Origin: a virus
Lineage: Duplodnaviria; Caudoviricetes
Direction: 5' to 3' (one strand)
Virus record (IMG/VR): IMGVR_UViG_3300007983_000016
Coordinates: 1-26,939 of that record
Length of the DNA: 26,939 bases
Both the position numbers and the translations under genes were made by a program. This document shows positions 4,978 to 25,175 of this stretch, piece by piece (within the stretch, counting starts at the first letter, position 1; each line of letters starts with the position of its first letter). Under the pieces are notes generated by a model, which saw only the letters and a program-made list of their open reading frames with translations, had not been told where the DNA came from and ran no database searches.

Positions 4978-6047
4978 ATGAATGAAAAAAACCGAGAAGA
5001 AAGGAGCGTGGGACGAAGAATACTTTTGTCCCACGTCTAGCTTGCGGGGAGTTATTTGCTTAGCTCCCCGCAAGCATTTAAGTTGACCTCGACGGCCACG
5101 GCATAATCACATTGGCAAAACATTTTGAAAGTAAAAGAATATATCTATTTGATGAAATTTTTCCTTGTGATTATGGATTTGAACTAGATGAAGATTTTTA
5201 TGGATACGTTTCAGAATTCGACGAAATCGTAATTGCCGATTTGACTCTTGATCAAAAAAAAGTAAAGAAGTGGATTCGATTGGGAAAGAAAGTACAGATA
5301 TTTGATCATCACTCTGAGACACAATGGATAGAAGAATACGAAGGAAGTGTTTGGGATAATACCCGCTGTGGAACAAAAATCTTTTGGGAAGAATATGTAA
5401 AACCTAAAATAGGTCGATACAAGCCAATTATCGATGAATTTGTAGATTTGGTAAATACGTATGATTTGTGGGATAAGGAAGGACCTCTTTGGGATCAAGC
5501 CGTAAATCTTAATAATGTTCTATATGGTGTCATAGACTATAGCCAAGACGATATCATCGAAAAGCTTACTCCTTTTTATAATTTGATGTCAAAAAAGTTC
5601 TCCAAGTTAGACCACTGGAGATGGACTCAAAAAGAAATAGATGTCATTGAACGAGCTCATCAACGAGAAGAAGAAATGTATACTAAAGCTATGGAGACTA
5701 TTTCGTATAGAGAAGACTCCAAGGGAAAGTATTTTGCGGTCATAATGATTGGATCAAAAGTGTCTTTGGTAGCTTCTAGAATCTTAGAGGAGCAAGACTA
5801 CCTAGACTATCTTATCGTGATCAACACTTATGGAGGAGTTACGGGAAAACTTTCTTTCCGATCGAGTCGAGGATTTATTTGTCATGATATTTGTGTAGCG
5901 AATGGGCATGATGCAGCTGCAGGAGGAAAAATAAGCTCAGATGATGCCAAAGATTTTTGGGAAAATGATGACCTCTGTATTAGGTATAATGATGAATATG
6001 ATGAGTCGAAGCCAAACGATATTTTCAATAGGGTTACTTATTCATGA
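4978..6047 (+). CDS. DHH/DHHA1 phosphoesterase interrupted by a 47-nt non-coding gap (join 4978-5037 + 5085-6047, about 340 aa)
   Basis: Segment 1 ends ILLSHV and segment 2 starts DLDGHG, restoring DHH motif 1 (SHxDxDG). IADL, FDHH and GHDAAAGG lie downstream. Confidence 0.85.
5007..5084 (+). other. candidate ribosomal bypass element: 5' stem-loop, take-off GTC, TAG, 15-bp hairpin, landing GTT
   Basis: Stem 5007-5018/5024-5035; GTC 5035-5037; TAG 5038-5040; hairpin 5040-5054/5061-5075; TAA 5079-5081; GTT 5082-5084. Confidence 0.7.
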
Positions 6048-8572
6048 GCGATTTTTTTCAATATGATGAATTAGTTAAAAAGAACGAGGAAGACCTCCTA
6101 AGAATAAAAGATCCATTTATTCTAAAGGCAGATAATCCCGAAGTCTATGTTTTATGTGATACTTTTCTCTCAAAACTACAGATTGGAATTCTAAGAAAAC
6201 TTTTAAAGACATTTGCCTCTATAGAACAGGTATCTATTCTTTATACTTATGATGTCAAAGCAACGGCGAAGGATACAGAAAAGTCTATTACTAAATTCGC
6301 TATGGATCACGCGATAGATTTTTCTGCATTTATTCCAGCTAAGTCTAAAATAATCACAATGGGACGGGCTCTTTATTCTATAACAAAGGATACGTCTGTT
6401 CAGGTTTCTGCTTTTCAGGATATTGTTTGGAACGATACGAAGTTCTATGATCCCAATACAGAGAGTTGGGTATTTCCTACGGCGTGGCTCATGGGTCTTT
6501 ATAGTTTTTCTGATGAATCTCTAATTAGCTCCTATGATCTCTATCATTTTAAGCATCAGCTAAAATATGTTGCTTCTTTCAAACCGCCGGCAATTCGAGT
6601 TCCAAAACTTAAAGTAGAACTAGTAGAAAATCCTAATGCTTTTTTACAAGAACATTTTGATGAAAAAGTAGTAGCTTGGGACTTAGAGACTGGTGGATTT
6701 GATTGTTCTCGAGATAAAGTTCGATGTGTTACTATGTCTTTCGATGGTAAAACAGGATATTATCTTAGATGGCCCGATATAGACCCAGAAATCCTAAACA
6801 AATTTTTTGAAGGAAAATATCAGATAGGAGCCAATCTAAAATTCGATTGTAGATTTATGCATCTACAGGGCGTTACAAATGCTAAACCTGATTTTGATAC
6901 TCTTCACGCAGGTCATGCTCTTAATGAAATGAGATCGAACTCTCTAAAGACTCATGCTTGGGTCTATACTTATTACGGCGGCTATGATCTTCCTCTCGAG
7001 GAGTATAAGAAAAAATATCCTAAAACAAAAAGCTATCTTCTAATTCCAGAATCAGTATTAGCCGACTATGCCGCTAAGGATTCAATTATAACCTATCAGG
7101 TATGGGAGAAACAGAAAGAGCATTTAGCGAAAGATCCAGAATTAGAAAGATATTTTTATGACGAGATGATGCCAACTGTTCAGATGTTTGTAGACATTGA
7201 AACAGAAGGTGTTTTCATAAATTGGAATAATATCCGAAAGAACAAAGAAAAGCTTTATAACGAGAGACAAGAAATTGTTGAGAAAATTTATAAAGAAGTT
7301 GGACGAGAATTCAATATCGCTTCGTCTAAGGAAACATCTCATATTTTAGAGTTCGAAATGAATCTTCCGTTCTTAGGAACACGAAACAAAGCTGGAGGAT
7401 ATTTTACAAATGAAGAACATTTAACAGAGTGGAAAAAGAAGGGTCATAGGATTGCTGAGTTACTTCTTGAATATCGAAGCTATAGTGCTCTATTAAATAC
7501 CTTCATTGGAGACGAAAAACTTAAGACTGCCTATTGGGAATACAAAGCTCCCAACGATTTAATCTATCCAAGCTATTCGGTTATGATGGCCAACTCTCAC
7601 CGTAATAAGTCAAATAGTCCCAATATGCAACAAGTACCTCATCATGGCGACAAGGCCTGGATGATACGATCTTTCTTCGACTGTCCAAAAGACTTCAAAA
7701 TATCTGAATTTGATTATTCAGGATTTCAACTTAGAATTGCGGCGATAATTTCTGGCGATGAGAATATGAAGAAAGCCTTCGTAGACCTCGGCGGCGATAT
7801 GCACAGTTTTACTGCTCAACCGATCTTTTGTCCAGAAATGACTCTCGAGGAGTTTCTAAGTAAGAAAAAAGAAGACCCTTATAAGGAGTATAGATTCCGG
7901 GCGAAAGGAATTAACTTTGGTCTTCTCTTTGGAATGGGTCATTTTACCTATGCCGCAAATTTTATACGAAAGGAATGGTCTTTGCAAGAGTGTAAAGACT
8001 TCTGTAAGGAGAGAAAAGTAACTATTCTTACTGACTTCCAATCGGGAACGACTGACTATTATCTATCAGTAGCTAAATATCTACGAGATACTTTTTTTGA
8101 AACTTATCCCGGATTAGTTTCTTGGCATGAATCAACTCATGCTTTTGCAAAAAAGAATGGATATGTTCGGTATGTTCATGGAGGCAGAAGATTGCTTCCA
8201 CAACTTCTTGGAGTTGGAGAAGATAAAAAAACAGAAGCTAGCTTGAAAAATATTTCTCTTAACTCTCCTGTTCAAAACTTCGAAATAGTTATCATATCGC
8301 GAGCGATGAGAGCTTTTAACAATTTTTGCAAAGAGAATAATTTCAAGTCAAGAATATGGGCAACAGTTCATGATGCAGTAGCCTTTTATATTCATAGAGA
8401 CGAAGAAAAAGTTTTAGGAGAAAAAATTCCAAAGATTCTACAAGCGTCTTTTCCAGAATTTGGGGATATTCCTATCGAAGTTGAGGGAGACCTTTCAGAT
8501 CCTTATGCAGAGTCTCCAGAATATTGGGGATACGGACAAGCATGGTACGAGGATCAACGAGTATTAATATAG
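6044..8572 (+). CDS. polA: DNA polymerase family A with 3'-5' exonuclease and degenerate UDG-like N-terminal domain
   Basis: Exonuclease motifs DLETGG, NLKFD and YAAKD. Polymerase motifs PNMQQVP, DYSGFQLR, RAKGINFGLLFG and VHDA. Confidence 0.93.
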   Translation: MSDFFQYDELVKKNEEDLLRIKDPFILKADNPEVYVLCDTFLSKLQIGILRKLLKTFASIEQVSILYTYDVKATAKDTEKSITKFAMDHAIDFSAFIPAKSKIITMGRALYSITKDTSVQVSAFQDIVWNDTKFYDPNTESWVFPTAWLMGLYSFSDESLISSYDLYHFKHQLKYVASFKPPAIRVPKLKVELVENPNAFLQEHFDEKVVAWDLETGGFDCSRDKVRCVTMSFDGKTGYYLRWPDIDPEILNKFFEGKYQIGANLKFDCRFMHLQGVTNAKPDFDTLHAGHALNEMRSNSLKTHAWVYTYYGGYDLPLEEYKKKYPKTKSYLLIPESVLADYAAKDSIITYQVWEKQKEHLAKDPELERYFYDEMMPTVQMFVDIETEGVFINWNNIRKNKEKLYNERQEIVEKIYKEVGREFNIASSKETSHILEFEMNLPFLGTRNKAGGYFTNEEHLTEWKKKGHRIAELLLEYRSYSALLNTFIGDEKLKTAYWEYKAPNDLIYPSYSVMMANSHRNKSNSPNMQQVPHHGDKAWMIRSFFDCPKDFKISEFDYSGFQLRIAAIISGDENMKKAFVDLGGDMHSFTAQPIFCPEMTLEEFLSKKKEDPYKEYRFRAKGINFGLLFGMGHFTYAANFIRKEWSLQECKDFCKERKVTILTDFQSGTTDYYLSVAKYLRDTFFETYPGLVSWHESTHAFAKKNGYVRYVHGGRRLLPQLLGVGEDKKTEASLKNISLNSPVQNFEIVIISRAMRAFNNFCKENNFKSRIWATVHDAVAFYIHRDEEKVLGEKIPKILQASFPEFGDIPIEVEGDLSDPYAESPEYWGYGQAWYEDQRVLI

Positions 8573-8592
8573 AAAAAAGTTTCAAAAAAGTA

Positions 8593-8621
8593 TGTACATA
8601 ATCTTCACAGTGTGATATAAT
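8593..8621 (+). promoter_or_regulatory. sigma70-like promoter TGTACA-N17-TATAAT (extended -10, A-rich upstream)
   Basis: TGTACA 8593-8598, TGATATAAT ending at 8621, AGGAGG SD before 8653. Confidence 0.7.
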
Positions 8622-8652
8622 ATTCTTAGATCACTAAATATAGGAGGATCTG

Positions 8653-9294
8653 ATGAAAAAGATTTCAGATTATGAGTTGATGAAGAGAATTGTTGAGGAC
8701 GAGGATGAATGGTCTAAGATTCATCTATGGCATCGGTATCAGCCAGTAGTTCATAAGAGAGCTAATTATATGATGACGGTGGTAAGCTCTCGATGGGAAA
8801 AAGATGACCTGATTCAAGAGTTTTTTATTGCCTTCCTAAAAGCAGTAGAATACATAAATCTAGAGAAGATTCCTGATGAGTCTTTTCACTTCGGAACAAT
8901 CTACTTTTTCTTTCTTAGGAAAGTAGAAAATCGTATCAAAATACATCATTTTAAGACACTGTCGGTAGAATCCGAATCTTATGAAAAATTGTTTCACCCT
9001 GAATCTAATTCACAAGATAACTCCAAGTCTATTCATGACAAAAAGGCTACCGAAACAATAAAGCACTCTCATATTTTCGATTTTGACGAATCTTCGGTCC
9101 TATTCAATTCGATAGAGCTTCCGTCTTTTCGAAAGATTCTGACTCCTGATCAGAATAATGTTCTTAGTGATCTTCTCGCGCGGAAGAAAATCGTAGATAT
9201 TTCTAACTCTAGAAATGAAAAGTATGGGCAAGTTTACAAAATGGTAAAAGAAATTAGAGAAAAAGCAAAAACTCATTTTGAGGCGGTGAATTAA
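8653..9294 (+). CDS. RNA polymerase sigma-70-like factor
   Basis: Region 2-like LWHRYQPVV...KDDLIQEFFIAFLKAVE; C-terminal HTH-like LTPDQ...IVDIS. Confidence 0.7.
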   Translation: MKKISDYELMKRIVEDEDEWSKIHLWHRYQPVVHKRANYMMTVVSSRWEKDDLIQEFFIAFLKAVEYINLEKIPDESFHFGTIYFFFLRKVENRIKIHHFKTLSVESESYEKLFHPESNSQDNSKSIHDKKATETIKHSHIFDFDESSVLFNSIELPSFRKILTPDQNNVLSDLLARKKIVDISNSRNEKYGQVYKMVKEIREKAKTHFEAVN

Positions 9295-9456
9295 ATGAAA
9301 ACGTATATCAAACAAGATCGATCCGTGATTATTGAAGAAGAGTCAGACTATTATCGAGTTACTTTTTCTATTTTGGGAATAGTGACAAATACCTACACGG
9401 TTTTTAAGCTTTCATCTGTAGATAGAAGTGAAATACATACGTTTCTAAATATTTGA
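9295..9456 (+). CDS. hypothetical protein (53 aa, not in ORF track)
   Basis: MKTYIKQDRSVIIEE...; abuts the upstream stop; SD-like GAGGCGG. Confidence 0.55.
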   Translation: MKTYIKQDRSVIIEEESDYYRVTFSILGIVTNTYTVFKLSSVDRSEIHTFLNI

Positions 9457-9474
9457 AAAAATTAAGAAAAGTAG

Positions 9475-9503
9475 TGTACAAAAGCTTCGGTATAGAGTAC
9501 TAT
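9475..9503 (+). promoter_or_regulatory. sigma70-like promoter TGTACA-N17-TACTAT
   Basis: Same -35 variant and spacing as the promoter at 8593; AGGAGG SD follows. Confidence 0.65.
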
Positions 9504-9521
9504 GATTTAGGAGGATCAAAT

Positions 9522-9755
9522 ATGATCAAGAATAGAAATGAGATGAAACGAGAGATCGAAATTGATCTTAGTGGACCCGAAGGAAATGCTTTTGTTCTTT
9601 TAGCCTATGCTAGAGACTTGGGACGAAAGCTTAATATGAGTCAAGAGGAAATAAACTTCATCACACACCGCATGCAGAGATCAGATTATGAAAATTTGAT
9701 TAAGGTATTTGATAAATCTTTTGGTCATGTGGTTACTCTTTATAGAGAAAGGTAG
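9522..9755 (+). CDS. conserved hypothetical phage protein
   Basis: IDLSGPEGNAFVLL motif. Start moved to ATG 9522, after AGGAGG. Confidence 0.75.
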   Translation: MIKNRNEMKREIEIDLSGPEGNAFVLLAYARDLGRKLNMSQEEINFITHRMQRSDYENLIKVFDKSFGHVVTLYRER

Positions 9756-9764
9756 AATATTGAA

Positions 9765-11636
9765 ATGAAAAATAGATATGCTGAAACAGATATTAAAAAG
9801 TTAAGTTCAAGAGAGCACGTGCTTTTAAGGCCCAACATGTACATCGGATCAGTTTCAAAGGTTTCTTCAGAAGAGTTTATTCTAGACGAAGAAGAAAAAC
9901 TTGTGAAGAAACAAGTGACCTATGTTCCTGGACTTCTTAAGATAATTAACGAAATAATCGATAATGCTATCGATGAATCCGTTCGAACAAACTACGATTT
10001 TGCTAATGTAATTAGAATAGACATCACAGAAAAATCGGTTTCAGTAGAAGATAATGGCCGAGGAATTCCTGTAAAGAAAATCGAAGGAACCGATCATTAC
10101 ATGCCGGTAGCTGCTTTTTGCCAAGCGCGCACTGGAGCGAATTTCGAAGACGATGAAAATCGATCCACGATTGGTATGAATGGTGTAGGATCTTTTGCAA
10201 CAAATGTTTTCTCTTCTCTATTTAAAGTAGATACCTGTGACGGTGAGAATAAGCTTTCTCTTGTTTGTGAGAATAATCTTAAGAAAGAAAATTTCTCAAT
10301 AAGAAAAAACTCCAAGCAATTTACTACGGTTGAATTTGAACCCGATTTTTCTCAGTTCGAAATCGACAAGCTAGATAAGAATCATATAGATATTATCTAT
10401 CAGCGTATTCTTTTCCTCTCCGTATCTCATCCTCAGGTCAAGTTCTTCTTTAACAAGAAGAGAGTAAGGGTAGCAAACGAGAAAAGTTTCATGTCTCTAT
10501 TCTCAGATTCTTTCGAGCTACTTACTGGGGATGGCTGGTTTGTAGGAGTTTTTCCAAATGAAGAGGATAATTTTTCTTTCTTCTCATACGTGAATGGCCT
10601 CTATATCAAGACGGGTGGAAATCATGTTAACCTCATCTCAAATGAAATTGTAAGTCGAATTCGAGACAAGCTGGTCAAGAAGTATAAGACAATTAAGCCG
10701 GGAGATATTCGCAACAAGCTTTCTTTGGTAGTATTTTTTAACGGCTTCAAGAATATGAAGTTCGATTCTCAAACGAAGGAAAATCTTACCAATTCTACTG
10801 CTGAAATAAGAGACTACATGAAGCTAGAAGTAGCTGATTGGGATAATTTTGGAAAGAAAATTCTTCGCAATACAGATCTTATAGAGCCGATTGTAGAAAT
10901 GTTTCGAATCAAAGAAGAGTTTAAGAAGAAGCAAGAACTTAAGAAGCTATCTTCCAACAAGAAGAAAGTACAAAACGATAAGTATTATCCTCCAATAGGT
11001 GAAAAGAAATATCTTCTTCTTTCAGAGGGTGATTCTGCAACGGCTGGACTTCAGCCGGTTTTTGGACGACAGGGAATCGGATATTTTTCTCTAAGAGGAA
11101 AGCCTCTTAATACTTTCGATACAAAGATTCTCAAGATGGTGGCCAATAAGGAGATTCAAGCTATCGTGGATATTTTGAATCTCGATCTTACGGATCCAAA
11201 TACCAATATGGAATATGAAAAGGTAGTATTCGCTAGCGATCAGGATGCGGATGGGATTCATATTCGCTCACTGTTGCTTACCTTCTTCTTCAGGTTCACT
11301 CCTGCTTTAATCGAACAGGGAAGAATAGTATTCTTACAAACTCCTCTTGTCGTAGGAAAGAAGAAGAACGATATCAAAGAATGGTATTTCTCGATGTCTG
11401 AGTACCAAGATTCTACTTCAGATTTAGAATGGCAATACAAGAAAGGTTTGGGTTCATGGACCAAAAAAGATCTTCAGGAAATTGTAGAAAAAACTGGCGG
11501 AATGGATTCTCTTCTTGTATCATTTTCTCCTACCGAAAAATCTAAAGAGTCAATTACTTCTTGGATGAAGGGAACAGAAGCTAACGCAAGAAAAGAAAAA
11601 TTGTATGGAAAAAAGTTTAATATTTCGACTCTATAA
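9765..11636 (+). CDS. type IIA DNA topoisomerase large subunit (T4 gp39+gp60-like, uninterrupted)
   Basis: HVLLRPNMYIGS, EIIDNAID, DNGRGIP, GMNGVG, EGDSA, LRGK, DQDADG and YKKGLG. Confidence 0.95.
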   Translation: MKNRYAETDIKKLSSREHVLLRPNMYIGSVSKVSSEEFILDEEEKLVKKQVTYVPGLLKIINEIIDNAIDESVRTNYDFANVIRIDITEKSVSVEDNGRGIPVKKIEGTDHYMPVAAFCQARTGANFEDDENRSTIGMNGVGSFATNVFSSLFKVDTCDGENKLSLVCENNLKKENFSIRKNSKQFTTVEFEPDFSQFEIDKLDKNHIDIIYQRILFLSVSHPQVKFFFNKKRVRVANEKSFMSLFSDSFELLTGDGWFVGVFPNEEDNFSFFSYVNGLYIKTGGNHVNLISNEIVSRIRDKLVKKYKTIKPGDIRNKLSLVVFFNGFKNMKFDSQTKENLTNSTAEIRDYMKLEVADWDNFGKKILRNTDLIEPIVEMFRIKEEFKKKQELKKLSSNKKKVQNDKYYPPIGEKKYLLLSEGDSATAGLQPVFGRQGIGYFSLRGKPLNTFDTKILKMVANKEIQAIVDILNLDLTDPNTNMEYEKVVFASDQDADGIHIRSLLLTFFFRFTPALIEQGRIVFLQTPLVVGKKKNDIKEWYFSMSEYQDSTSDLEWQYKKGLGSWTKKDLQEIVEKTGGMDSLLVSFSPTEKSKESITSWMKGTEANARKEKLYGKKFNISTL

Positions 11637-11650
11637 GGTATAATAAGAAT

Positions 11651-13165: not shown

Positions 13166-13567
13166 TTGAACAGTAATGATCTTCGCCTAATAGATAAAGC
13201 GGCTACTCTTTGTGAACAAAATCCTGAAAACAGGAATAGGCAAAGAATAGCCGCTATTGTTACAGATGCGAAAGGTAATATTCTAAGCACGGGTATCAAC
13301 AGTTATCAAAAGACACACCCTGTACAGGCCCGATATGCCGAAAAAACCAAAAACCAGTATAATGTTTTTCTTCATGCTGAGATTGCTGCTCTCGTAAAAA
13401 ACCGATATACGGAAAAAGCCGCTAGAATCTATATAGCTCGTATTTATAGGAATGGCGATTATGCATTAGCAAAACCTTGTCCTATTTGCTCATTAGCTAT
13501 TAAAGAAGCCGGTATTGAAGAAATTTTTTATACCACGAAAACCAAAGTCATAGAAAAAAGGTACTAA
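13166..13567 (+). CDS. cytidine/deoxycytidylate deaminase-family protein
   Basis: Zn motifs HAEIAAL and KPCPIC. Confidence 0.85.
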   Translation: MNSNDLRLIDKAATLCEQNPENRNRQRIAAIVTDAKGNILSTGINSYQKTHPVQARYAEKTKNQYNVFLHAEIAALVKNRYTEKAARIYIARIYRNGDYALAKPCPICSLAIKEAGIEEIFYTTKTKVIEKRY

Positions 13568-13568
13568 A

Positions 13569-13721
13569 ATGAATAGCAAAAAGGCGAAAGCAATTCGAAG
13601 AATGGTTGAGTCTGAGATCGCAATTTATGAAGAGAAAAGTGGTAAGAAAGTTCCCGACAGCATGCGAAAAAAGTTTTACCAAGACCTTAAGAAAAAGTTC
13701 AAAAACAGCACTATTAACTAG
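13569..13721 (+). CDS. small basic hypothetical protein (50 aa, not in ORF track)
   Basis: MNSKKAKAIRR...; its TAG overlaps the terminase GTG. Confidence 0.6.
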   Translation: MNSKKAKAIRRMVESEIAIYEEKSGKKVPDSMRKKFYQDLKKKFKNSTIN

Positions 13722-15778
13722 TGAGCTCAATTATAAATGAATCCAATGCAAATGAAGGAAAATATCTCATAACTGATCTTGCTTCTGGCGACGAAAGTGT
13801 CAGCAAGAGGAAAGATTTTCTTTCGTTGTCAGGAGAAGAAATAAGAGAAGCGTTGGGTCTTATTTCAAATAGAAAAGATTTATCAAACAAACAGAAACAA
13901 AAGATCCTTTCCAACATTTGGAGAATTCATTACCGAAACAAGCCTCCTACGATAGAAGAATTTTTATCCGAAGAGTGGATAGGACCAACCGCAAATAGTG
14001 TTTATCCTCATGTTAAAGATATTTTGACTGAGTTTTGGCATCCTCAAAGTAACAAAAGAAATCTGTTATTAGGAATGTCGATCGGAACGGGAAAATCGTT
14101 TACTTCTACTCTTTGGTCACTTTATATTACCACTCATCTTTGGAGTATGCGTGATCCTAAGAGATTCTTTGGACTTTCTCAAGCAACTTCTATCGTTCAT
14201 GGTATGATATCTTTTACCTTAGAAAAAGCACAGCAGTTATTATTACAGCCGTTTTTTCAAATACTGCTATCCTCGTCGAAGTTTCATCGCGTGAAGCAAG
14301 AAGAGCATCTTAATAGACATCAGACAGAAAATCCGAACGAGATATGCTGGACTTCAGCTGGAAAAATAGGCGTTCTACAATTCTATAACGACGTTCACTA
14401 TATGATTGCTAGCTCTCCGGCTCAATTGCTTGGATTGAATATGATTACAGCAATTCTTTCAGAAATATCTTTCTTCTTAGAAAAAGGATTCTCATCAGAA
14501 TATATCTGGAGAATTTATCAGGATAGCAAAGGACGTGTTCGTTCTCGTTTTGAGAACATGTATTTTAGCGGCACTGTAATTGACTCTTCGCCAAATGATA
14601 TCGAACTCTCTCCAATAGATAAGTATATTTTTCAAGGTGATGCGGAAAAAGATCCTAGCAATATGGTTATTACCGGAGCTCAGTGGGATTTTCTTCCTCA
14701 TAAATTTCCTGAGTGGTATAAGACTGGAGCATCTTTTCCAGTCTTTAAGGGATCACAAGGTTCTCCTGCTAGAATACTTGAGACAGAAGCTTCAGTGAAT
14801 CAATACAAAAAAGATGAGATTTACCATGTTCCTATTGATCTGAAACAGATGTTTATCGACAATACTGTTAAGTCGGTAAAGGACTATTGTGGATGGCCCT
14901 CGGGGTCTCAAGGAGTCTTAATCAGAGAGGACTCAGTTATAGAAAAAATGTTTACTCCTCAGCTGAAAAATATCTACTCTTATATTTCGGCTCCTGCGTC
15001 TAAGTCATCTACCCGTCTAATTTGGAATGAAATCTATTCTCAATTTTTTATAGAGCATAATAAGGGATTCGAGTTCTATAGAAATCCATTGGAGAAGAGA
15101 TATATTCATGTTGACCAGGCTGAAACTGGAGACATGGCTTCTATATCAATGGTACATCCTGAAATAACTGAAGACGGAGAAATAGTTTACATCACAGATT
15201 TTAATCTAGCTATCTCACCAGAAAAAGAACGAATAAATCTCGATGCTATCCGATTATTTATTCAGGACCTTCGAGATGTAGGAAGAATAAATGTAGACCT
15301 GGTATCTTTTGACCAGTATCAATCTAAAGCAACTATGCAGTATTTGAAGGAAAAGGGATTTAGTGTAGAATTACTATCTGTCGATAGAGATTCGAAACCC
15401 TATTTGACCTATGTTTCACTTATTCATTCGCAGAAAGTCAAAGCTGGTAGAAATATTTTTCTAAAGAATAATCTAAGATCACTGCAGGAAGTTACTACCA
15501 ACAGCGGAAGAAAAAAGATAGACCACACAAAAGGAAAAATTATTTACGAAGACGGAGCTAAATGGGAAACATCAGACATGGGCAAATTCGCAAAAGACGT
15601 CTCAGACTCTCATTGCGGAGCCGTTTGGAATGCTATTCATAATTTTATAGGAGCTCCACGAATGGTATGGAAGAAAGAAAGAGAGATAAAAAACGAAGAC
15701 TACAGCAGTATAATAAAGAAAGAGTTGTATAGTGAATTAAAAAGCCGATATGGTTTGGAGGTATCAAATGGAAGATAA
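13721..15778 (+). CDS. terL: terminase large subunit
   Basis: Walker A IGTGKS; RNase H-like nuclease motifs YIHVDQA, SFDQYQS, KIDH and KDVSDS. Confidence 0.85.
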   Translation: MSSIINESNANEGKYLITDLASGDESVSKRKDFLSLSGEEIREALGLISNRKDLSNKQKQKILSNIWRIHYRNKPPTIEEFLSEEWIGPTANSVYPHVKDILTEFWHPQSNKRNLLLGMSIGTGKSFTSTLWSLYITTHLWSMRDPKRFFGLSQATSIVHGMISFTLEKAQQLLLQPFFQILLSSSKFHRVKQEEHLNRHQTENPNEICWTSAGKIGVLQFYNDVHYMIASSPAQLLGLNMITAILSEISFFLEKGFSSEYIWRIYQDSKGRVRSRFENMYFSGTVIDSSPNDIELSPIDKYIFQGDAEKDPSNMVITGAQWDFLPHKFPEWYKTGASFPVFKGSQGSPARILETEASVNQYKKDEIYHVPIDLKQMFIDNTVKSVKDYCGWPSGSQGVLIREDSVIEKMFTPQLKNIYSYISAPASKSSTRLIWNEIYSQFFIEHNKGFEFYRNPLEKRYIHVDQAETGDMASISMVHPEITEDGEIVYITDFNLAISPEKERINLDAIRLFIQDLRDVGRINVDLVSFDQYQSKATMQYLKEKGFSVELLSVDRDSKPYLTYVSLIHSQKVKAGRNIFLKNNLRSLQEVTTNSGRKKIDHTKGKIIYEDGAKWETSDMGKFAKDVSDSHCGAVWNAIHNFIGAPRMVWKKEREIKNEDYSSIIKKELYSELKSRYGLEVSNGR

Positions 15779-18419: not shown

Positions 18420-18620
18420 TTGAGTATGATTTTTTTATTTACTTTGGGCTTTATAGTCACGATGATGGCTGTGCTGCTCGTTGTTTTCATGTTATTTGGA
18501 GAGACAAAGGTTGTTGTTAAATATAATCCTCCAATCTCTAGTGAATTTAAGACGCTCGAGGTTTTTCCTCGAAGAGTGAAGTATGGACGATTACCCAAAG
18601 GAGCGTATGGACAATGTTAA
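18420..18620 (+). CDS. small membrane protein
   Basis: TAAGGAG SD; N-terminal transmembrane helix. Confidence 0.6.
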   Translation: MSMIFLFTLGFIVTMMAVLLVVFMLFGETKVVVKYNPPISSEFKTLEVFPRRVKYGRLPKGAYGQC

Positions 18621-18820
18621 TTCTATGGATTATGATTGCGGGAATATACATTACCGGAGTAATTTATTTTGTAGAGTACGAGCTATATAATGCCGACCCT
18701 ACAGACACTAAGACAGAGCGTTTTTACTATATCCTCGCAGCGTGTTTGTGGCCAATATCATTCCTTTTAGGGCTCATTATGCTAATCTATAATGAACTTA
18801 AAAGATTTTTAAGTAAGTAA
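18614..18820 (+). CDS. small membrane protein
   Basis: AAGGAG SD; two hydrophobic segments, including LWPI. Confidence 0.65.
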   Translation: MLILWIMIAGIYITGVIYFVEYELYNADPTDTKTERFYYILAACLWPISFLLGLIMLIYNELKRFLSK

Positions 18821-18844
18821 ATTTATTTCATAAGGAGAAATAAA

Positions 18845-19726
18845 ATGAGTGTATTTAGTACAGTGGAAGGAATTCCTATCTCAGAGATAAAGGATTCCGT
18901 AAAGGCAGAAGTTACTGACGAGGGAGCTATTAGTCAGGAAACTACGACCTTCTTGAATAAGAAGGCTGTTATGCGAATAGAAGAAGATGAGACACGAGTT
19001 CCTTTGGGTCTCGTTGCTACTAATCGTCTTCTTCTACACCATTCTGATCTTCTAGACTGGGTCCACGAAGGTCTAGACAAGACAAACATCGATTATAAGG
19101 TCATCGATAATGTTGTAAATCAACGATCAGATCTTTTTCAGCAATATCTTCTTAATATTGATATGGATACTCCAGACGGAGAGTCAATTAGCCCCAGCCT
19201 TATTCTTAAGGCTAGCTATGTTGGAAAGCCCTTGGAGATTATGTTCGGTACCTACCGTTTTGTCTGTAGCAACGGAGCGATCGTAGGAAATACTTTGGAG
19301 AACTTTACAGTAAAGCCAAATCAGCTTTCTGATCTTCTTAATCGAAGTATTGAAACAGAAATTCTTCATGGCGTCGAAAATATGTCAAGAGTATCTAATC
19401 GATATGCTCGTATGGCTCAGGAACCGATGAGTGACTATCTTCCTTCCCTGATTGAAGAAAAACGACTTTCAACAAAGATTCGAAAGGAAATCTTATACTC
19501 ATTGGAGAAGTCCGGTCAGGTCTCGCTTCCCTTGGAAGATGATGATATTCAAATTGATGCGGAATCGCTTAATCACAGTGATCCTACTTCTCTGTATACT
19601 CTTCTAGTTGACAATAGTGCTTGGGACCTTTACAATGTAGCCACGAATATTGCTACTCATACAACCCGGACTGTCTCTGGAAGACAATCAGCAGATCGTC
19701 AGATCGCTAATATTTTTAGCGTCTAA
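18845..19726 (+). CDS. DUF932-like protein
   Basis: GTYRFVCSNG and SAWDLYNVAT motifs; TAAGGAG SD. Confidence 0.75.
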   Translation: MSVFSTVEGIPISEIKDSVKAEVTDEGAISQETTTFLNKKAVMRIEEDETRVPLGLVATNRLLLHHSDLLDWVHEGLDKTNIDYKVIDNVVNQRSDLFQQYLLNIDMDTPDGESISPSLILKASYVGKPLEIMFGTYRFVCSNGAIVGNTLENFTVKPNQLSDLLNRSIETEILHGVENMSRVSNRYARMAQEPMSDYLPSLIEEKRLSTKIRKEILYSLEKSGQVSLPLEDDDIQIDAESLNHSDPTSLYTLLVDNSAWDLYNVATNIATHTTRTVSGRQSADRQIANIFSV

Positions 19727-19770
19727 CAATCTAGAGGTTCCCACTCATCCTAGAAAAGTGGACTTTTGTC

Positions 19771-19844
19771 GGGCTCATAGCTCAGTGGAATAGAGCAGGT
19801 GGTTTCTACCCATCAGGTCGGAGGTTCGAATCCTTCTGGGCTCA
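19771..19844 (+). tRNA. trnR: tRNA-Arg (UCU)
   Basis: Acceptor GGGCTCA/TGGGCTC, D arm GCTC/GAGC, anticodon stem GGTGG/CCATC with loop TT-TCT-AC, T arm GGAGG-TTCGAAT-CCTTC. CCA is not encoded. Confidence 0.93.
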
Positions 19845-19900
19845 AATTGATTATCATATCACTTAGAAGAGGTAGATGCTTCTGAAAAGAAGCCGCGATA

Positions 19901-20182
19901 ATGAAATATTTAAACCTAAAAGAAAATTATCCAGAACTTCACGAGCATATTGATACTGAGCTAAGAAAATTAGTAGGCCCTAAGATAAATAGTTCGCTAG
20001 AGTATCTGCATGCTAAACTTTTTTCATCTATTATTTTTCAAGGATATTGGGATATTCTAACAAAATATAGACTACACATCTTCGCTCCTCAAGGTCTTCT
20101 TGCTGTTCTTCTAATTACTGCGAAAGGAAATAAACTTCCTAATATAATTACTGACGCCAGAAAACTGGAAGGAATAATATAA
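19901..20182 (+). CDS. hypothetical protein
   Basis: ORF fills the space between the tRNA and the clamp loader; no motif recognised. Confidence 0.55.
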   Translation: MKYLNLKENYPELHEHIDTELRKLVGPKINSSLEYLHAKLFSSIIFQGYWDILTKYRLHIFAPQGLLAVLLITAKGNKLPNIITDARKLEGII

Positions 20183-20215
20183 CCATCATACCGGAAGGAG
20201 TATAATACTAGTAAT

Positions 20216-21295
20216 ATGTATACACTAGAACACAGACCGTTTAGTTTTGACGAGATGATTGGAAATAAGGGCACGCTTTCTGAAATGAAGAAGAGAAGTG
20301 AAACTATGGATTTTCCAGAGGTTATGATCTTCGAAGGCGCAAGTGGAACAGGAAAAACCACTCTCGCCTTCATTATTTCTGCTCTTATTAACGACACGAA
20401 TCCATTAAAGATTCGCGGACAAAAATATTTGAATCCAAATCCAAATTCTCCATCATCAAAGAATGTTTTGGAAGAAAAGTTTAGCCGTGACATTCATTTC
20501 TATGACGCCTCTACTATGGGAAAGGACGATGTATCAAAGCTAGAGTCTGTAGTAAGTACAGCTCCAATGTTTGATAAGAAGAAAGTAATCATTATTGATG
20601 AAGCACAGGAGCTTACAAAGTCCGGTAAGGGTGTTACTTTGAAGCTTTTGGAAAAAAAGCGAAAGAATGCTCACATCATCCTCTGTACAATGAACATCAA
20701 TGCCTTTGATAAGGCAGTAAAAACTAGAGGACAGCTTTATACGTTTCGTTCTCCCTCGTCAACCGACATAGCAGAATATTTGTACAATATCTCAGAGAAG
20801 GTAGGAGCAACTCCCCCCGATGAATTCTATGAGTCTGGAATTTTTGTAATAGCAGAAAATTGCGAAGGTTCTATTCGAAGTGCCGTACAAAATCTAGAGC
20901 GTTGTCTGGTTGGAGAATTCTATTCTGAAGAGCAGATTCAAAACGAGTTAGGATTTTTGTCTACTAATGCTTTGGCTAAGATAATTTCTAAGATTTTCGA
21001 GAACGATATGTCAGTTATGAAAGATATTATCGATTTCTCTGTGAAGGAATTTTTCTACAAGACAAAGAAAACCATTACTGAAGCGGCTATCTATAAGAAT
21101 ATCGGATTCATAAAGGCTGATTGGAAGAAAGGTTTCGCAAAGAAAATAAGCAAGTACGATCTAGATGGATTTGTTGATATGCTTATGAGAGTAGATTCTG
21201 AGACCTATTTCAAGGAAGACTTTTTTCTATACGAGCTCTCGAAGTTCATGAAAAATAGCCAAAAAATTACCAAAAAAAGAGAACCCGTAAGCTAG
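20216..21295 (+). CDS. dnaX: clamp loader, DNA polymerase III gamma/tau-like
   Basis: HRPFSFDEMIG, GASGTGKTT, DAS, IIIDEAQ and EGSIRSA. Confidence 0.88.
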   Translation: MYTLEHRPFSFDEMIGNKGTLSEMKKRSETMDFPEVMIFEGASGTGKTTLAFIISALINDTNPLKIRGQKYLNPNPNSPSSKNVLEEKFSRDIHFYDASTMGKDDVSKLESVVSTAPMFDKKKVIIIDEAQELTKSGKGVTLKLLEKKRKNAHIILCTMNINAFDKAVKTRGQLYTFRSPSSTDIAEYLYNISEKVGATPPDEFYESGIFVIAENCEGSIRSAVQNLERCLVGEFYSEEQIQNELGFLSTNALAKIISKIFENDMSVMKDIIDFSVKEFFYKTKKTITEAAIYKNIGFIKADWKKGFAKKISKYDLDGFVDMLMRVDSETYFKEDFFLYELSKFMKNSQKITKKREPVS

Positions 21296-21314
21296 ATTTT
21301 AGTATAATAAGAAT

Positions 21315-21878
21315 ATGAACATATTTATGTTGGACGATAATCCAAAAATTGCTGCTAAAATGCTAGACGATGTAAGGGTTGTAAAAATGATAACAGAGAG
21401 CGCTCAGATGCTCTCTACAGCTCACAGGATCCTTGATGGTCGCAAGATACTGGTTCATACAACTAGTAGAAATCGAACTCACTGGGAGCTACCAGAACCT
21501 TTTGAGTCTAACCTGTACAAAGTTGCTTATCGCAATCATCCGTGTAATATTTGGATACGAGAAACTACTGACAATTATCAATGGCTCTTCGATCATTTCG
21601 TAGCTCTTGCACAAGAGTATACGCTTCGATATGGAAAGAAGCATAAAAGCAGCGGTCTTATTCGTTTTTTGCTAAGATATCCCTTAAACATTATGGATGG
21701 TCCTCTTACTTTTCCGGCTCTCGCTATGCCCGAAGAATACAAGTCATCCAATTTTGTTGAATCTTACCGTAGCTACTTTAATGGAGAAAAACTATTTCCG
21801 AAGAAAAGGCCCGCGTCATGGAAAAATAATGAAATTCCATCATGGGTTGATACTCAAAAGCTTACTAGACTAGTATAA
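21315..21878 (+). CDS. pyrimidine-dimer DNA glycosylase / endonuclease V-like protein
   Basis: MNIF.LD, VVKMITESAQMLSTA, HPCNIW, EYTLRYGKKH and SYRSYF. Confidence 0.75.
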   Translation: MNIFMLDDNPKIAAKMLDDVRVVKMITESAQMLSTAHRILDGRKILVHTTSRNRTHWELPEPFESNLYKVAYRNHPCNIWIRETTDNYQWLFDHFVALAQEYTLRYGKKHKSSGLIRFLLRYPLNIMDGPLTFPALAMPEEYKSSNFVESYRSYFNGEKLFPKKRPASWKNNEIPSWVDTQKLTRLV

Positions 21879-21899
21879 TATATATATAAGGAGACAACA

Positions 21900-22178
21900 T
21901 TGGCAAATAAGATTAAGGGACTGCCGGAAAGTGAAGAGTTTGATTTTGAACTATGGCGGATAGACTTTCAGTTCGCTATCATGCTGAACATTAGATATGG
22001 ACTTGAGAAGAGATACATGAAGGTTCAAAATAAGTTCAAGCAGATAACAAAGGATTATCTGTCACTAGATCAAACTAAGATAGCTATAGAAAAGATTGTG
22101 AATAGTGCATATTTGACTATTCCTGAAGAATTCTATAGAGAGGCTGAACGATACAATGGAATACCTACGAGCAGTTAA
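21900..22178 (+). CDS. hypothetical protein
   Basis: TAAGGAG SD, TTG start, upstream GTATAAT. Confidence 0.7.
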   Translation: MANKIKGLPESEEFDFELWRIDFQFAIMLNIRYGLEKRYMKVQNKFKQITKDYLSLDQTKIAIEKIVNSAYLTIPEEFYREAERYNGIPTSS

Positions 22179-22211
22179 ACGTCAGTATGTTCATAATATA
22201 AGGAGACAACA

Positions 22212-22421
22212 ATGCCAGAAGTTACGATGAAATCAGACCTGAAGGATATGGCAGCATATCTACTTTACTGTGATATTCCCTTTCAAATCGTGAGAGAAGA
22301 AAATTACATTCGACTTTTGACTGATCTTAAAGAGATTAAGTTCAAATATACTGGAGAAATGTTCGAAGCTACCACATTTAATGTTCCCCACACTGTAGGA
22401 GAATATCGTCTACATTCATGA
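22212..22421 (+). CDS. hypothetical protein
   Basis: TAAGGAG SD; ATGA overlap with the primase. Confidence 0.7.
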   Translation: MPEVTMKSDLKDMAAYLLYCDIPFQIVREENYIRLLTDLKEIKFKYTGEMFEATTFNVPHTVGEYRLHS

Positions 22422-23410
22422 TTAGCTATGAAGAATTAAACAGCATTTATCCTGTATCACTGCTTTTGGAAAATTTAGGCCTACAGAAGGTAGAAGAACG
22501 AGAAAAGTATTATCGTTTTTCGTCGCCTTTTAAGACGGATAAAAATCCATCAATGGTTCTTTACAAAGATAATCTAATGTGTATAGATTTTTCTTCCAGG
22601 TATAGAAACAGTCTTTTTTCGTTTGTGAAGGATTTGACGGGAGAAAGTCTGTATTCTGTTGCTGGATTGGATAAGGGAAAGCTTTATGGAAAGATGTTTG
22701 AGAATTCTTTGCAAACTAGAACAGAGTTTCCAAGCAGAATCAAATCCATCAAGATAAATGGAATGCTGGATAGAGTCGAAAAAAGTGAAGAGGCTCTTTC
22801 GTACTGTCAAAAGAGGAACCTTTTCAAAGACTTTAGAAAAAAGTTCGATATACGATATATGAAATCCGGTAAGATTAATGAAACTTACTTCGGAAATAGA
22901 GTCTGCATTCCTATCATTAGCGGCGGAAAAACTGTTTCTATGGAAGGAAGAGATATTACCGGAAAAGCGAGAGCGAAGGTTCTTTATCCCAAAGGAGCTT
23001 ATGTATCAACACTTTTCAACATCGATAATCTAAATAGAAATGAACCTCTTATTGTTGTAGAAGGAATTATGGATATTCCTAAGATTTGGAAGTTCTTTAC
23101 TACGAATGTTACAACTACCTTCGGAATAATGATTACAACAAAACAGAAGGAGTTGCTTTCTACTTTCGATGATGTTATATTAATGCCCGACGGAGATAAG
23201 GCTGGAGAAGATATGATAGATGAGTTTGATTCTTTCTATGATAGAGAGTTCAAAATCGCTAGACTAGAAGGAAAAGACCCTGGCGATGCGTTCACAAAAG
23301 AAATAGAAAAAGTACTATCAAACGTAAAGTCTTCTACACATTATTTTCTAGAAAAGTCTGAGTTATTTAACTCAGATGAAAAGAAAGAGGTATCTTTGTA
23401 TGACGCATAG
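22418..23410 (+). CDS. dnaG: DNA primase (TOPRIM)
   Basis: NRVCIPI, EGR, VVEGIMD, DGDKAG and KDPGD. Confidence 0.9.
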   Translation: MISYEELNSIYPVSLLLENLGLQKVEEREKYYRFSSPFKTDKNPSMVLYKDNLMCIDFSSRYRNSLFSFVKDLTGESLYSVAGLDKGKLYGKMFENSLQTRTEFPSRIKSIKINGMLDRVEKSEEALSYCQKRNLFKDFRKKFDIRYMKSGKINETYFGNRVCIPIISGGKTVSMEGRDITGKARAKVLYPKGAYVSTLFNIDNLNRNEPLIVVEGIMDIPKIWKFFTTNVTTTFGIMITTKQKELLSTFDDVILMPDGDKAGEDMIDEFDSFYDREFKIARLEGKDPGDAFTKEIEKVLSNVKSSTHYFLEKSELFNSDEKKEVSLYDA

Positions 23411-23588
23411 TTGGATAGTAAATCTAAAAGAAGGACAAAAGCTAGTTGGGTCTATTTTGGTAGATACTGAAATAGGAGAGGATCCTTATCTTAAGGCTGA
23501 CTTTACTGACTACCAAAGAGAAATGATAAAGACAAATAAGTATTCTTTAGAGCTTAGATTGCTAAAGAAAGAATCAAAGGGGAAGTAA
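23400..23588 (+). CDS. hypothetical protein
   Basis: Probable ATG at 23400 after GAGGT; the stop lies inside the 5' end of the tmRNA-like RNA. Confidence 0.55.
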   Translation: MTHSWIVNLKEGQKLVGSILVDTEIGEDPYLKADFTDYQREMIKTNKYSLELRLLKKESKGK

Positions 23589-23683
23589 AGGTTTCGATTA
23601 TGAATTCGTTTGAAGCGACGTAAGGCCCACTGCATCGAAAGCTTAGAGTTCATAAGACGAGGGTTCGACTCCCTCCTTCTCCA
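23579..23683 (+). ncRNA. ssrA: miniature tmRNA-like RNA (tRNA-like domain only, 105 nt)
   Basis: 5' GGGGAAG-TAAAGGTTTCGA and 3' GAC-GAGGG-TTCGACT-CCCTC-CTTCTCC-A; G3:U70 pair; 10-bp P2 helix; no D stem or anticodon arm. Confidence 0.85.
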
Positions 23684-23694
23684 AAGAGGAAGAA

Positions 23695-23745
23695 ATGAGT
23701 AAAACATGGTTTATTTCCGATACACATTTTAGACACAGCAGATGA
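23695..23745 (+). pseudogene. orphaned 5' fragment of metallophosphoesterase (MSKTWFISDTHFRHSR*)
   Basis: AGAGGA SD; the first 14 aa are identical to the reconstructed N-terminus of the gene at 24623. Confidence 0.85.
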
Positions 23746-23769
23746 TATAAATTATCATACTATTAAAGT

Positions 23770-24626
23770 ATGATAATAAAGAAGTGTTTAGTCTGCGGCA
23801 AAGAGTTTGGAACATATCCTTCAATTAATTCTAAGTTTTGTTCTAGAAAATGTTACGGGGTATATTTAAGCGAAACTATTAGAGGTGAAAATAATCCTAA
23901 TTTCGGTAATAAATGGACAAAGGAACAAAAAAGACTCAGTCAAATATTATAAAATCAAAAGTAGATGAAGATTATAGGTATAAAGCAGGAACGGCGAATC
24001 GAGGCAAAAAGTTTTCTAAAGAACGAATAGAAAGAATGCATGGCCACCGCACATTCGAGTCTTATTCGAGAGAACACTCAGATGAATCGAAGAAAAAGAT
24101 AGGAAAGAAGAGTTCTGAAAAATTTACTGAAGAGTATAAGATAGCTTTCAGAAAGAAAATGGAAGACAGTGGCCGTTGGCTTCCTTTAGAAGAAAAAGAA
24201 GACTGTCAAATATATTTCAAAGAAGCGAGCTGGATAGATAAAATGTTCGATCTTGTTGAAGATGGGAGAGAGTTATTGAAAGAATTCGGTGTTTTTCACA
24301 ATACAAAAAATATTGAGGGGGTAGTTAGAGACCATAAGTATGGCAGAGTGTCTGGATTTAAGAATAAAATTTTTCCTGAAATTCTAAGACATCCGGCAAA
24401 CTGCCAAATAATATTACATTCAAAAAATGTAAGTAAAGGACAGCTCAATAGAGGAAGAGGAAGGATCGACTCATCTATCTCTTTGGAGAAACTTTTTGAA
24501 GAAATAAAGAACTATCAAAAACAATGGAAAGAACAAAAATTAGTTTTGGAGTTAATAAAGCGGTATGAAAACGGAGAAAGATGGGAAAGAAAAGGGGGCA
24601 AATGCGTATCAGAGGGCCAAGTATGA
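23770..24626 (+). mobile_element. free-standing HNH homing endonuclease (Zn-ribbon + NUMOD3-like repeats + HNH), frameshifted near 23927-23932
   Basis: CLVCGKEF..FCSRKC, GENNPNFG and HSDESKKKI; HNH-like RDH...HPANCQIILHSKNVSKG. Two overlapping ORFs are joined by a -1 shift at an A6 run. Confidence 0.75.
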
Positions 24627-24662
24627 GTAAGACTTGGTTCATCTCTGATACGCATTAGCTAT
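24601..24662 (+). other. candidate bypass element 2: 22-bp 5' stem-loop, take-off CAT, 7-nt gap TAGCTAT
   Basis: 24601-24614 is perfectly complementary to 24643-24656, and 24615-24622 pairs with 24632-24639. Gap is 24656-24662. Confidence 0.65.
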
Positions 24663-25175
24663 TTTCGTCATGCTAATATTCTAACTTTTGAAAAAGATGA
24701 TGGAAGTCTTCTACGACCTGGATTTAGAGACGTCGATCATATGAACAAGTATATGATCGAAAGATGGAACAGCGTAGTGGCTAAGGATGATAAAATTTAT
24801 CATCTAGGCGATGTTTTAATGGGAACTTCTATCGAAGCCTTTAAAATTTTATCCCGCCTCAATGGAAGAAAAGTTCTAATCAAAGGAAATCATGATACGG
24901 CTAAGATTCATCGATATATGGAATATTTTACCGACGTAAGAAGTGAGATACATAAGAAAACTCCAGCAGGAAAAAAGGTAATTTTTACTCATCGTCCTAT
25001 ATATCTGGCCCAAAACGAAGAAGTTTTCAATGTTCATGGTCATATGCATTATCGTAGTATTCAAGACTCTAGGTATCTGAACATTAGCGTCGAAAGGTTA
25101 GAGGATTATACGCCTATCAGCTGGGAAAAAATCAATGAAATTCTCTTACAAAACAATCGTCTTTTACCAGTATAA
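24623..25175 (+). CDS. calcineurin-like metallophosphoesterase interrupted by a 7-nt gap (join 24623-24655 + 24663-25175, 181 aa)
   Basis: FISDTH|FRHANI, HLGDV, KGNHD, FTHRP and VHGHMH. Confidence 0.85.

Follow-up and report, generated by a model that had tools for sequence, protein, structure and literature searches.

We wanted to know how a virus (Duplodnaviria; Caudoviricetes) could make two phosphoesterases whose genes are each broken, within the first codons, by a stop codon and a shift of frame. The genes lie on the 26,939-nucleotide (nt) IMG/VR record IMGVR_UViG_3300007983_000016, which was analysed over its full length and is referred to here as the window: site 1 is in a DHH phosphoesterase gene and site 2 in a calcineurin-like phosphoesterase (MPE) gene directly behind a likely homing endonuclease gene (Table 1). 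An earlier reading, made from the letters of this DNA only (the sequence-only reading), had ascribed both breaks to a family of ribosomal bypass elements driven by a 5' stem-loop, perhaps genome-wide, or, less likely, to micro-splicing. Its description of the gaps was borne out: they measure 47 and 7 nt, neither a multiple of 3, start with TAGCT within the first 11-20 codons and end in a triplet one base off the take-off codon (GTC/GTT and CAT/TAT), and in each case the 3' arm of a stem-loop ends at the last sense codon (z-scores in Table 1). It was also right that the topoisomerase, the carrier of the bypass in T4, is intact, the large subunit being a single 623-aa open reading frame (ORF) with a full-length alignment to a relative. 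We conclude that both breaks are probably crossed by a programmed ribosome hop, which at site 2 comes with a nuclease cassette; taken singly, the hop appears highly probable at site 2 and, a little less firmly, likely at site 1.

Both breaks sit in what we take to be the first metal-binding motif of the respective phosphoesterase family. At site 1, the upstream piece consists of ~10 extra N-terminal residues and the first DHH strand, ending in the take-off codon GTC (5035-5037); intact DHH relatives start M-x-R-I-L-I-S-H-V-D-L-D-G, and the closest full-length one, 64% identical, reads S-H-V-D-L-D-G. The family motifs (N-terminal D-x-D and D-H-H) are complete once the 47 nt are skipped, this length scored best among 90 tested against a profile of 42 DHH relatives, and the downstream frame has 320 open codons, with the D-H-H motif kept. 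Within the gap, a 15-bp hairpin (5040-5075, z -7.1) buries an out-of-frame GTT (5051-5053) and is followed by a 6-nt A/T spacer and the landing GTT (5082-5084). The end of the gap is its sole in-frame Val triplet, the only other GTN being the one buried in the 5' arm of the stem. At site 2, the MPE motifs are distributed over both pieces (D-x-H before the gap; G-D, G-N-H-D, and G-H-x-H after it). The loop of the 5' stem holds ATG 24623, and the 5' arm begins with an in-frame ATG at 24602, from which the upstream piece would have 18 residues. The site 2 cassette carries a recoded copy of the start of its target gene, a duplication of which there is none at site 1: the stub upstream of the nuclease and the cassette copy specify the same 14 residues, including the F-R-H past the gap, and differ in 8 codons, all synonymously and with no amino acid change.

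Table 1. Positions of the elements at the two broken phosphoesterase genes in the window; z, z-score of the fold
Feature	Position	Strand	Remark
Site 1, sigma-70-like promoter match, TGGAAA-18-TATAAT	4942..4971	+	-10 box ends 7 nt before ATG 4978
Site 1, upstream piece, 20 codons, ends L-L-S-H-V	4978..5037	+	TAG follows at 5038
Site 1, 5' stem-loop, 13 pairs, -19.9 kcal/mol, z -5.4	5006..5036	+	3' arm ends within take-off codon
Site 1, coding gap, 47 nt, TAGCT...GTT	5038..5084	+	TAG, hairpin, spacer, landing codon
Site 1, downstream piece, D-L-D-G to C-terminus, different frame	5085..6047	+	phrog_4771, E 1e-13
Site 2, MPE gene-start stub, 14 matching codons, then S-R-stop	23695..23745	+	upstream of nuclease; repeat
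Site 2, likely homing endonuclease, NUMOD3 motif, D-H...N...H motif	23770..24626	+	stop overlaps ATG 24623
Site 2, 5' stem-loop, 14 + 7 pairs, -29 kcal/mol, z -7.0	24602..24655	+	3' arm ends at last base of take-off codon
Site 2, upstream piece, 11 codons ending S-D-T-H	24623..24655	+	cassette-borne copy; take-off CAT 24653-24655
Site 2, coding gap, 7 nt: TAG, C, landing TAT 24660-24662	24656..24662	+	only fit to family motif
Site 2, downstream piece, F-R-H-A-N to C-terminus	24663..25175	+	PF00149, PF12850

Both gaps are genuine coding gaps. They are letter-identical in a separately assembled contig (depth 14.3), which possibly stems from the same sample and so is not an independent lineage; in view of this second assembly and of the recurrence of the site 2 gap in relatives, an assembly error was rejected for either gap. 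None of 200 shuffles folded as well as the 5' stem of either site or the gap hairpin of site 1, and the two strongest 60-nt folds on the plus strand of the window are the site 1 gap hairpin and the site 2 5' stem. Further, a blind scan of both strands of the window for a start, a short ORF, a 5' stem, a stop, a matched triplet and a long frame returned exactly sites 1 and 2. The scan is loose, with 92 raw candidates in ~1.0 Mb from 11 other phage records, and among the candidates listed from those phages junction support from many homologues was found only for five MPE sites known beforehand; such support could be assessed for 43 of 94 candidate sites in our local set, so that the remainder may include real sites, and the scan overlooks T4-type cassettes (e.g. 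loci L065 and L162). Of the 30 genes of the window, 19 align with a relative in one frame, 3 are the known broken ones and for 8 no relative was found. Hence, with such sites in only 2 of the 30 genes of a 27-kb contig, the proposal of genome-wide recoding is not upheld.

Site 2 belongs to a family of related cassettes. Two scans with the nuclease as query returned 41 loci, representing 39 distinct records; the nuclease lies directly before an MPE gene in 36 of these and elsewhere in 3. Of these 36 MPE genes, 8 are intact and 28 have their break within the D-x-H-x-x-H motif (L058-L062 and L078 were classed by eye, the motif used by our script being too strict for them). After near-identical records were collapsed, 21 of 29 nuclease-adjacent MPE genes were broken compared with 0 of 11 without the nuclease (Fisher 3e-5, ancestry ignored). 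The comparison set was 16 MPE loci chosen by protein similarity, of which 15 show the motif, all intact, leaving 11 after collapsing; none has such a nuclease within 1.6 kb upstream. The upstream stub is present at 12 of the 21 broken loci and at 14 of the 29 distinct loci overall. In all 21 broken lineages the downstream frame stays open; the break is a single extra base at UUU-C or UUU-U in 9 of them, and in the other 12 a gap of 4, 5, 6, 7 or 22 nt that contains a stop. The breaks fall into three classes, namely +1 at UUU-Y, stop gaps of 4-7 nt, and gaps of 22-26 nt, most of the last with a T4-type UUCG stem. The +1 class is represented by L058-L064, L066, L068, L073, L091 and L093, which amount to nine distinct cassettes; many have a strong Shine-Dalgarno-like start, their stems are weak, and they are a candidate +1 frameshift family in their own right.

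We also searched for the gap classes by pattern. With the landing triplet left free, a scan for 7-nt gaps after His gave six matches, one of them the same record as L090; all six proved to be MPE genes and have a strong 5' stem, and their landing triplets are CAC (three), TAC (two) and GAT (one). In this class the free triplet ahead of F reads x-A-Y in 7/7 cases; together with the TAC landings, this indicates that the TAT of the window is a recurring variant and not a sign of decay. A scan for gaps of 18-48 nt gave 28 matches, 8 of which are real MPE cassettes (one being the L065 record): six have the gene 60 TAGCC-TTCG-GG stem, one a TGCG loop, and one another hairpin starting TAGCT. The T4-type take-off stem was found in the MPE relatives L065/L167, L154, L156, L173, L177 and L178. 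Seven cassettes (L114, L116, L154, L161, L162, L177 and L178) have no nuclease directly upstream, and such nuclease-less cassettes are what site 1, itself without a nuclease, would require. One of them, L162, has near 1501 (gene sense) a Ser codon AGT, TAG, a 22-nt TAGCT hairpin gap and a landing AGC, with a short H-E duplication flanking it. The same 7-nt cassette has other genes in front of it in L113 and L117, upstream of 1500 (gene sense): in L113 the decayed remnant of a zinc-finger nuclease, and in L117 an HNH gene of a different kind. The cassette has therefore changed nuclease partners. Across 18 cassettes the stop and next base are TAGC in seven, TGAC in five and others in six, a stop followed by C being a weak termination context. 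TAGCT was therefore rejected as a fixed signal: it is shared by both window gaps, as the sequence-only reading had it, and is common but not universal in relatives, and in gaps of 5-6 nt the base after the stop belongs to the landing codon. Among cultured carriers, tblastn of 50,697 phage records gave just distant nuclease matches (13 records) and two distant DHH genes; three of the distant nuclease records were inspected and have it among tRNA genes or in unannotated DNA, not before an MPE gene. The distant nuclease relatives L055 and L057 stand free in jumbo-phage tRNA arrays (Serratia phage BF and a Vibrio phage).

As for the nuclease itself, the NUMOD3 match (PF07460) has an E of 6e-5, and the R-D-H, H and N columns are invariant across relatives. 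For the predicted structure of a relative (pLDDT 90.7), Foldseek found only weak similarities, with Cas9 HNH domains (E 0.02) at the top and viral HNH proteins also present. From these motifs and weak fold matches, the product is likely a homing endonuclease. The window copy is frameshifted at an A-run (23921-23926), whereas the second assembly keeps the extra A but has an altered start codon at 23770; the two may be differently damaged alleles, or the differences may be assembly noise, and an assembly error is a plausible source of the frameshift near 23926.

Three properties of the cassettes bear on function. First, we folded the 60 nt up to the take-off codon and took z < -2 as threshold: 16 of 18 stop-gap cassettes passed (median -5.0), compared with 1 of 9 frameshift-type cassettes and 1 of 19 intact genes, the stop-gap exceptions to a strong 5' stem being L053 (z -1.6) and L072 (z -0.2). 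Stem and loop lengths are too variable for a calibrated covariance model, and the Asp codon served instead as the anchor for counting pairs; four pair types occur at the columns of the Ser wobble base and of the variable codons, the 5' arm changing along with the coding arm. In 17 of 18 cassettes the landing triplet lies 2-6 nt from the stem end, and the exception has a T4-type stem. At site 1, the landing lies 6 nt past the end of the gap hairpin, within the range of the short cassettes, and the stem end may therefore be a ruler. Second, take-off and landing triplets were compared at 19 stop-gap sites, including both window sites: the middle base agrees in 19/19, the third-base class in 18/19 and the amino acid in 12/19. 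A synonymous landing is found in 10 of the 14 sites not chosen by pattern, a level reached by 0 of 100,000 permutations. The GTC/GTT pair of site 1 is readable by one tRNA, and the CAT/TAT pair of site 2 needs a first-position G-U pair, as is also the case in L114 and L116. Third, six lineages share a 22-nt gap, and in these pN is 0.12-0.25 compared with a pS of 0.51-0.78 (synonymous sites being near saturation across the six), with a downstream frame that is open and conserved. The sequence-only reading would have fallen had there been neither further examples nor covariation in the 5' stems; for site 2 both were found, and that part of its claim survives. Of the proposed family of bypass elements linked by a 5' stem, the further MPE examples and their co-varying stems stand, and site 1 is without a gapped relative in the DHH loci considered below.

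We propose that the stop directly behind the take-off codon would make the ribosome pause, whereupon the just-unwound 5' stem would refold behind it, drag mRNA out and push the ribosome forward. The peptidyl-tRNA would then re-pair at a matching triplet where the push ends, 47 nt on at site 1 and 7 nt on at site 2, and the stem end may act as a ruler for landing that tolerates a first-position mismatch (CAT to TAT). Pairing of exiting mRNA has been proposed as a forward driver in T4 (Wills et al., 10.1101/2024.12.09.627546), and in vitro, with 70S ribosomes, +1 shifts are stimulated by a hairpin that refolds upstream, there only in the absence of RF2 (PMC6321510). At site 2, the stem would be melted by ribosomes that reach the end of the nuclease gene, and these would reinitiate at ATG 24623, which overlaps its stop. 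As to its origin, a homing endonuclease may have inserted in the first metal-binding motif of the MPE gene, bringing a spare gene start; by analogy with T4 mobA/gene 60 (10.1101/2022.08.31.505936), the gap bases would spoil the nuclease target and give the host gene immunity, and the hop would restore an unchanged enzyme. At site 1, the 5' stem would begin the slide and the gap hairpin complete it, and the element is probably a cassette that lost its nuclease or never had one beside it. That site 1 belongs to the site 2 family is suggested by its architecture; a common origin of the two elements is possible but doubtful.

Several observations weigh against a hop at one or both sites. At the level of the family, the pair types were read from per-sequence folds, and repeated inverted duplication could explain them instead of stepwise compensation; the family counts are not corrected for shared ancestry; 8 of 29 nuclease-adjacent MPE genes are intact, so the break is not required for the cassette; and the nuclease call leans on motifs and weak fold matches, the E of 0.02 being the best to a solved structure. 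Landings are non-synonymous at 7 of 19 sites, all by first-position mismatches, of which 4 allow G-U by wobble rules and 3 do not (AAT, GAT, and GCT after TCC). The site 2 landing is itself imperfect (CAT to TAT), and an exact CAT is present 16 nt on, at 24669-24671. Site 1 lacks an adjoining nuclease or stub as well as a T4 take-off stem, a mini Shine-Dalgarno and a KKYK-like peptide; its gap hairpin scores terminator-like; under the two-stem model the ribosome would still have to get across the first half of the gap stem; and a 15-bp stem ahead of the ribosome could hinder rather than help, scanning ribosomes having been described as melting gap structure poorly (10.1101/2024.12.09.627546). 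Finally, no gapped DHH gene was found among 30 assessable loci (12 viral, 21 metagenome and 1 genome locus were screened, 4 of them not assessable at the N-terminus). A scan for the DHH gap pattern gave 32 matches; 31 were translated, L129 being a duplicate of L123/L128, and contained no DHH gene. In 35 cassette-related records there were three weak DHH matches with no stop within the match. Of 55 DHH relatives in a protein search, 48 begin with an intact first strand and 7 without it; the latter, among them P0002 (76% identity), may owe this to a gap or to a contig edge.

The most probable alternative keeps the hop at site 2 and takes the gene of site 1 for a dispensable DHH gene that was recently inactivated or attenuated, an inverted-repeat insertion stopping its translation or terminating its transcription. 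The missing gapped relatives and nuclease neighbour, the terminator-like hairpin and the accessory nature of a DHH enzyme all fit this alternative. However, the T-run behind the hairpin is interrupted and the DNA polymerase gene lies directly downstream. Further, site 1 has a separate 5' stem in the coding region up to the take-off codon, where none of 24 intact DHH loci has a fold below z -1.4; the gap ends in its sole in-frame Val triplet, with the other one hidden in a stem; and the long downstream frame is open and keeps D-H-H. We therefore consider inactivation of site 1 improbable.

That both genes are dead or dying through selfish elements, the stems being by-products of insertion, is a good deal less probable. 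The window nuclease copy is itself frameshifted, with an altered start codon instead in the second assembly, and both enzymes are probably non-essential; yet the duplicated 14 codons changed synonymously only, the sequence downstream of the old shared gap is under purifying selection, codon matching is far above permutation and 21 distinct broken lineages have open downstream frames. Slightly less probable still is a different path at site 2, i.e. landing at the exact CAT at +16 (which loses F-R-H), a 4-nt skip inserting Tyr, or internal starts for the downstream pieces. Conservation of the second His does place an exact His codon at +16 in the 7-nt class, and internal start codons are present at 5112 (site 1) and 24741 (site 2); against this, the stub keeps D-T-H-F-R-H, the free triplet is invariably x-A-Y, and the internal starts would drop the first metal ligands. 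Least probable is that the gap is excised from the RNA and the ends re-joined by the phage's Rnl1-like ligase or a host enzyme, the micro-splicing alternative of the sequence-only reading: the window does encode an Rnl1-family ligase and there are strong hairpins by the gaps, but PF09511 was unmatched in 4 of 5 near-complete cassette-bearing genomes (a loose look at this ligase family only, 13 records searched), the gaps, of 1 to 47 nt, have no ends in common, the landing triplets change together with the take-off anticodon, for which splicing has no need, and an Rfam scan of the window to E 1 matched only two tRNAs and a transfer-messenger RNA (tmRNA) and no intron or ribozyme, the gaps being just 7 and 47 nt.

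The remainder of the contig was surveyed for context. It encodes DNA polymerase A, a two-subunit type II topoisomerase, a helicase, a primase and ligases. Records carrying relatives of its DHH gene reach sizes of 134-155 kb, and the contig is therefore probably a minority of its phage genome. The products of 686-1575 and 3430-4551 include a cyclic-phosphate receiver domain, a Swiss-Army-Knife HAD domain and the Rnl1-family ligase, which suggests an RNA repair set. The position of the promoter match at the DHH gene predicts a likely leaderless or near-leaderless transcript from ATG 4978. In the window, TATAAT with a start codon 5-8 nt on occurs at eight places (3418, 4966, 5985, 11639, 15913, 21303, 25460 and 26754), six of them directly preceding called gene starts (3430, 4978, 11651, 15925, 21315 and 25472), and many genes of the contig may be transcribed as leaderless mRNAs. 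The next-strongest hairpins after those of the two sites (13196-13255, 13781-13840 and 26586-26645; -26.7, -23.6 and -22.6 kcal/mol) lie inside the second deaminase gene, at the start of the ORF at 13721 and in the DNA ligase gene, with no stop or frame break after them; the ORF at 13721 is a probable terminase large subunit by motifs, without a Pfam match.

Of the two tRNA genes, tRNA-Cys(GCA) at 566-636 and tRNA-Arg(TCT) at 19771-19844, neither reads the take-off or stop codons. The tmRNA-like gene (23579-23684, plus strand; 106 nt) has the tRNA-like domain only (RF00023, 53.7 bits) and lies 10 nt before the MPE stub, and short forms likewise occur in genome G005 (126 nt) and, more weakly, in G041 (109 nt). 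This short RNA was rejected as the agent of the hop: G005 has a similar one but an intact DHH gene, and several cassette genomes carry a full-length tmRNA or none. There is a precedent in the tmRNA of mycobacteriophage DS6A, for which inhibition of host tmRNA has been reported (PMC4131195, PMC11915505), and the short RNA might shield paused ribosomes from rescue.

How do these sites relate to known systems? Programmed bypassing is described in the relevant passages of the literature for the T4 gene 60 family, Streptomyces phage Hau3 and Magnusiomyces mitochondria (10.1101/2022.08.31.505936, PMC10732093). The window sites share with T4 gene 60/MobA a stop right after take-off (TAG at 5038 and 24656), and with gene 60 a 5' stem and a break in a metal-binding motif. 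Site 1 also shares with gene 60 a wobble-matched landing, a decoy codon hidden in the gap and an AU-rich 3' part of the gap without a premature landing triplet. The site 2 family resembles MobA, an element described as carrying in a recoded version of the sequence that it interrupts (Manning and Atkins, 10.1101/2022.08.31.505936), in its nuclease cassette with a recoded target copy and in the persistence of the cassette after nuclease loss, and its relatives carry the gene 60 TAGCC-TTCG-GG stem. In contrast, the T4-type cases described in the relevant sections of 10.1101/2022.08.31.505936 and 10.1101/2024.12.09.627546 are all in the topoisomerase large subunit, with gaps of 20-50 nt and Gly or Asp take-off, whereas the hosts here are DHH and calcineurin-like phosphoesterases with Val or His take-off after 11-20 codons and gaps of 1 to 26 nt in the MPE family and 47 nt at site 1. 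The 5' stem here ends at the take-off codon, and that of T4 9 nt before it; the CC-UUCG-GG-type take-off stem is absent at both window sites; a mini Shine-Dalgarno (GAG, GGG, GGA or AGG, 5-7 nt before the landing in T4) is missing from both window sites, at site 1 from the whole 15 nt before GTT 5082; and there is no KKYK motif, the upstream pieces having 20 and 11 (or 18) residues compared with the 44-46-residue extension of T4.

The 10-nt bypass in the Hau3 terminase is likewise a short phage gap with a proposed 5' stem-loop stimulator, and its junction peptide was shown in E. coli for a UAA variant; unlike the present sites it is triggered by a rare UUA sense codon, with a proposed regulatory role, and no homing endonuclease is named in the pertinent passages of its description (PMC10732093). 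Synthetic stop-hops share the matched codons around a stop, and natural in-frame ones are given as unknown in the corresponding part of a 2016 review (PMC5009743), for which the MPE relatives L053, L070, L074, L076 and L085 are candidates. Upstream-hairpin +1 shifting shares a refolding 5' hairpin that pushes the ribosome, but in an engineered construct (PMC6321510). The byps of Magnusiomyces mitochondria share several inserts (27-55 nt, a size similar to that of site 1) in unrelated genes and tolerant codon matching; they differ in being mitochondrial, in using an unassigned sense codon and in numbering 81 copies per genome, compared with a stop codon and 2 sites in 30 genes here (10.1101/2022.08.31.505936). 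In the literature searched, which leaves most subscription journals outside and to which preprint supplements may add, we found no report of bypass in a phage phosphoesterase (MPE or DHH) gene.

If hopping holds, these genes hop like gene 60 but without several of its defining features, and the trick of T4 extends to other genes and gap sizes. The sequence-only reading had neither the nuclease cassette of site 2 nor its duplication of the gene start. What is added here is a graded series of breaks at one target, connected directly with the T4 stem, and, outside topoisomerase, a candidate bypass of 47 nt. One practical consequence is that gene callers truncate such phage enzymes ahead of the first metal ligand; both window proteins are stored in databases as N-terminally shortened entries. 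The origin of the gene 60 cassette has been called a puzzle (10.1101/2022.08.31.505936), and events at the mRNA exit the main open problem of bypassing (10.1101/2024.12.09.627546). The MPE family gives natural constructs of a minimal ~70 nt for testing the model that exiting mRNA pushes the ribosome, and a route by which the T4 element may have evolved from a slip of one base. Taken as a whole, and at somewhat short of an even chance that all its parts hold together, homing endonucleases of environmental phages would routinely use ribosomal recoding, rather than introns or inteins, to occupy essential active-site codons, in a graded series at one target from +1 slips through stop hops of 4-7 nt to T4-type gaps of 22-26 nt. 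Stems in cis would push and a fixed distance from stem to P-site, more than an exact fit of the codons, would set the landing, site 1 would be a 47-nt bypass with two tandem pusher stems and no T4 peptide, and T4 gene 60 would be the long end of the class.

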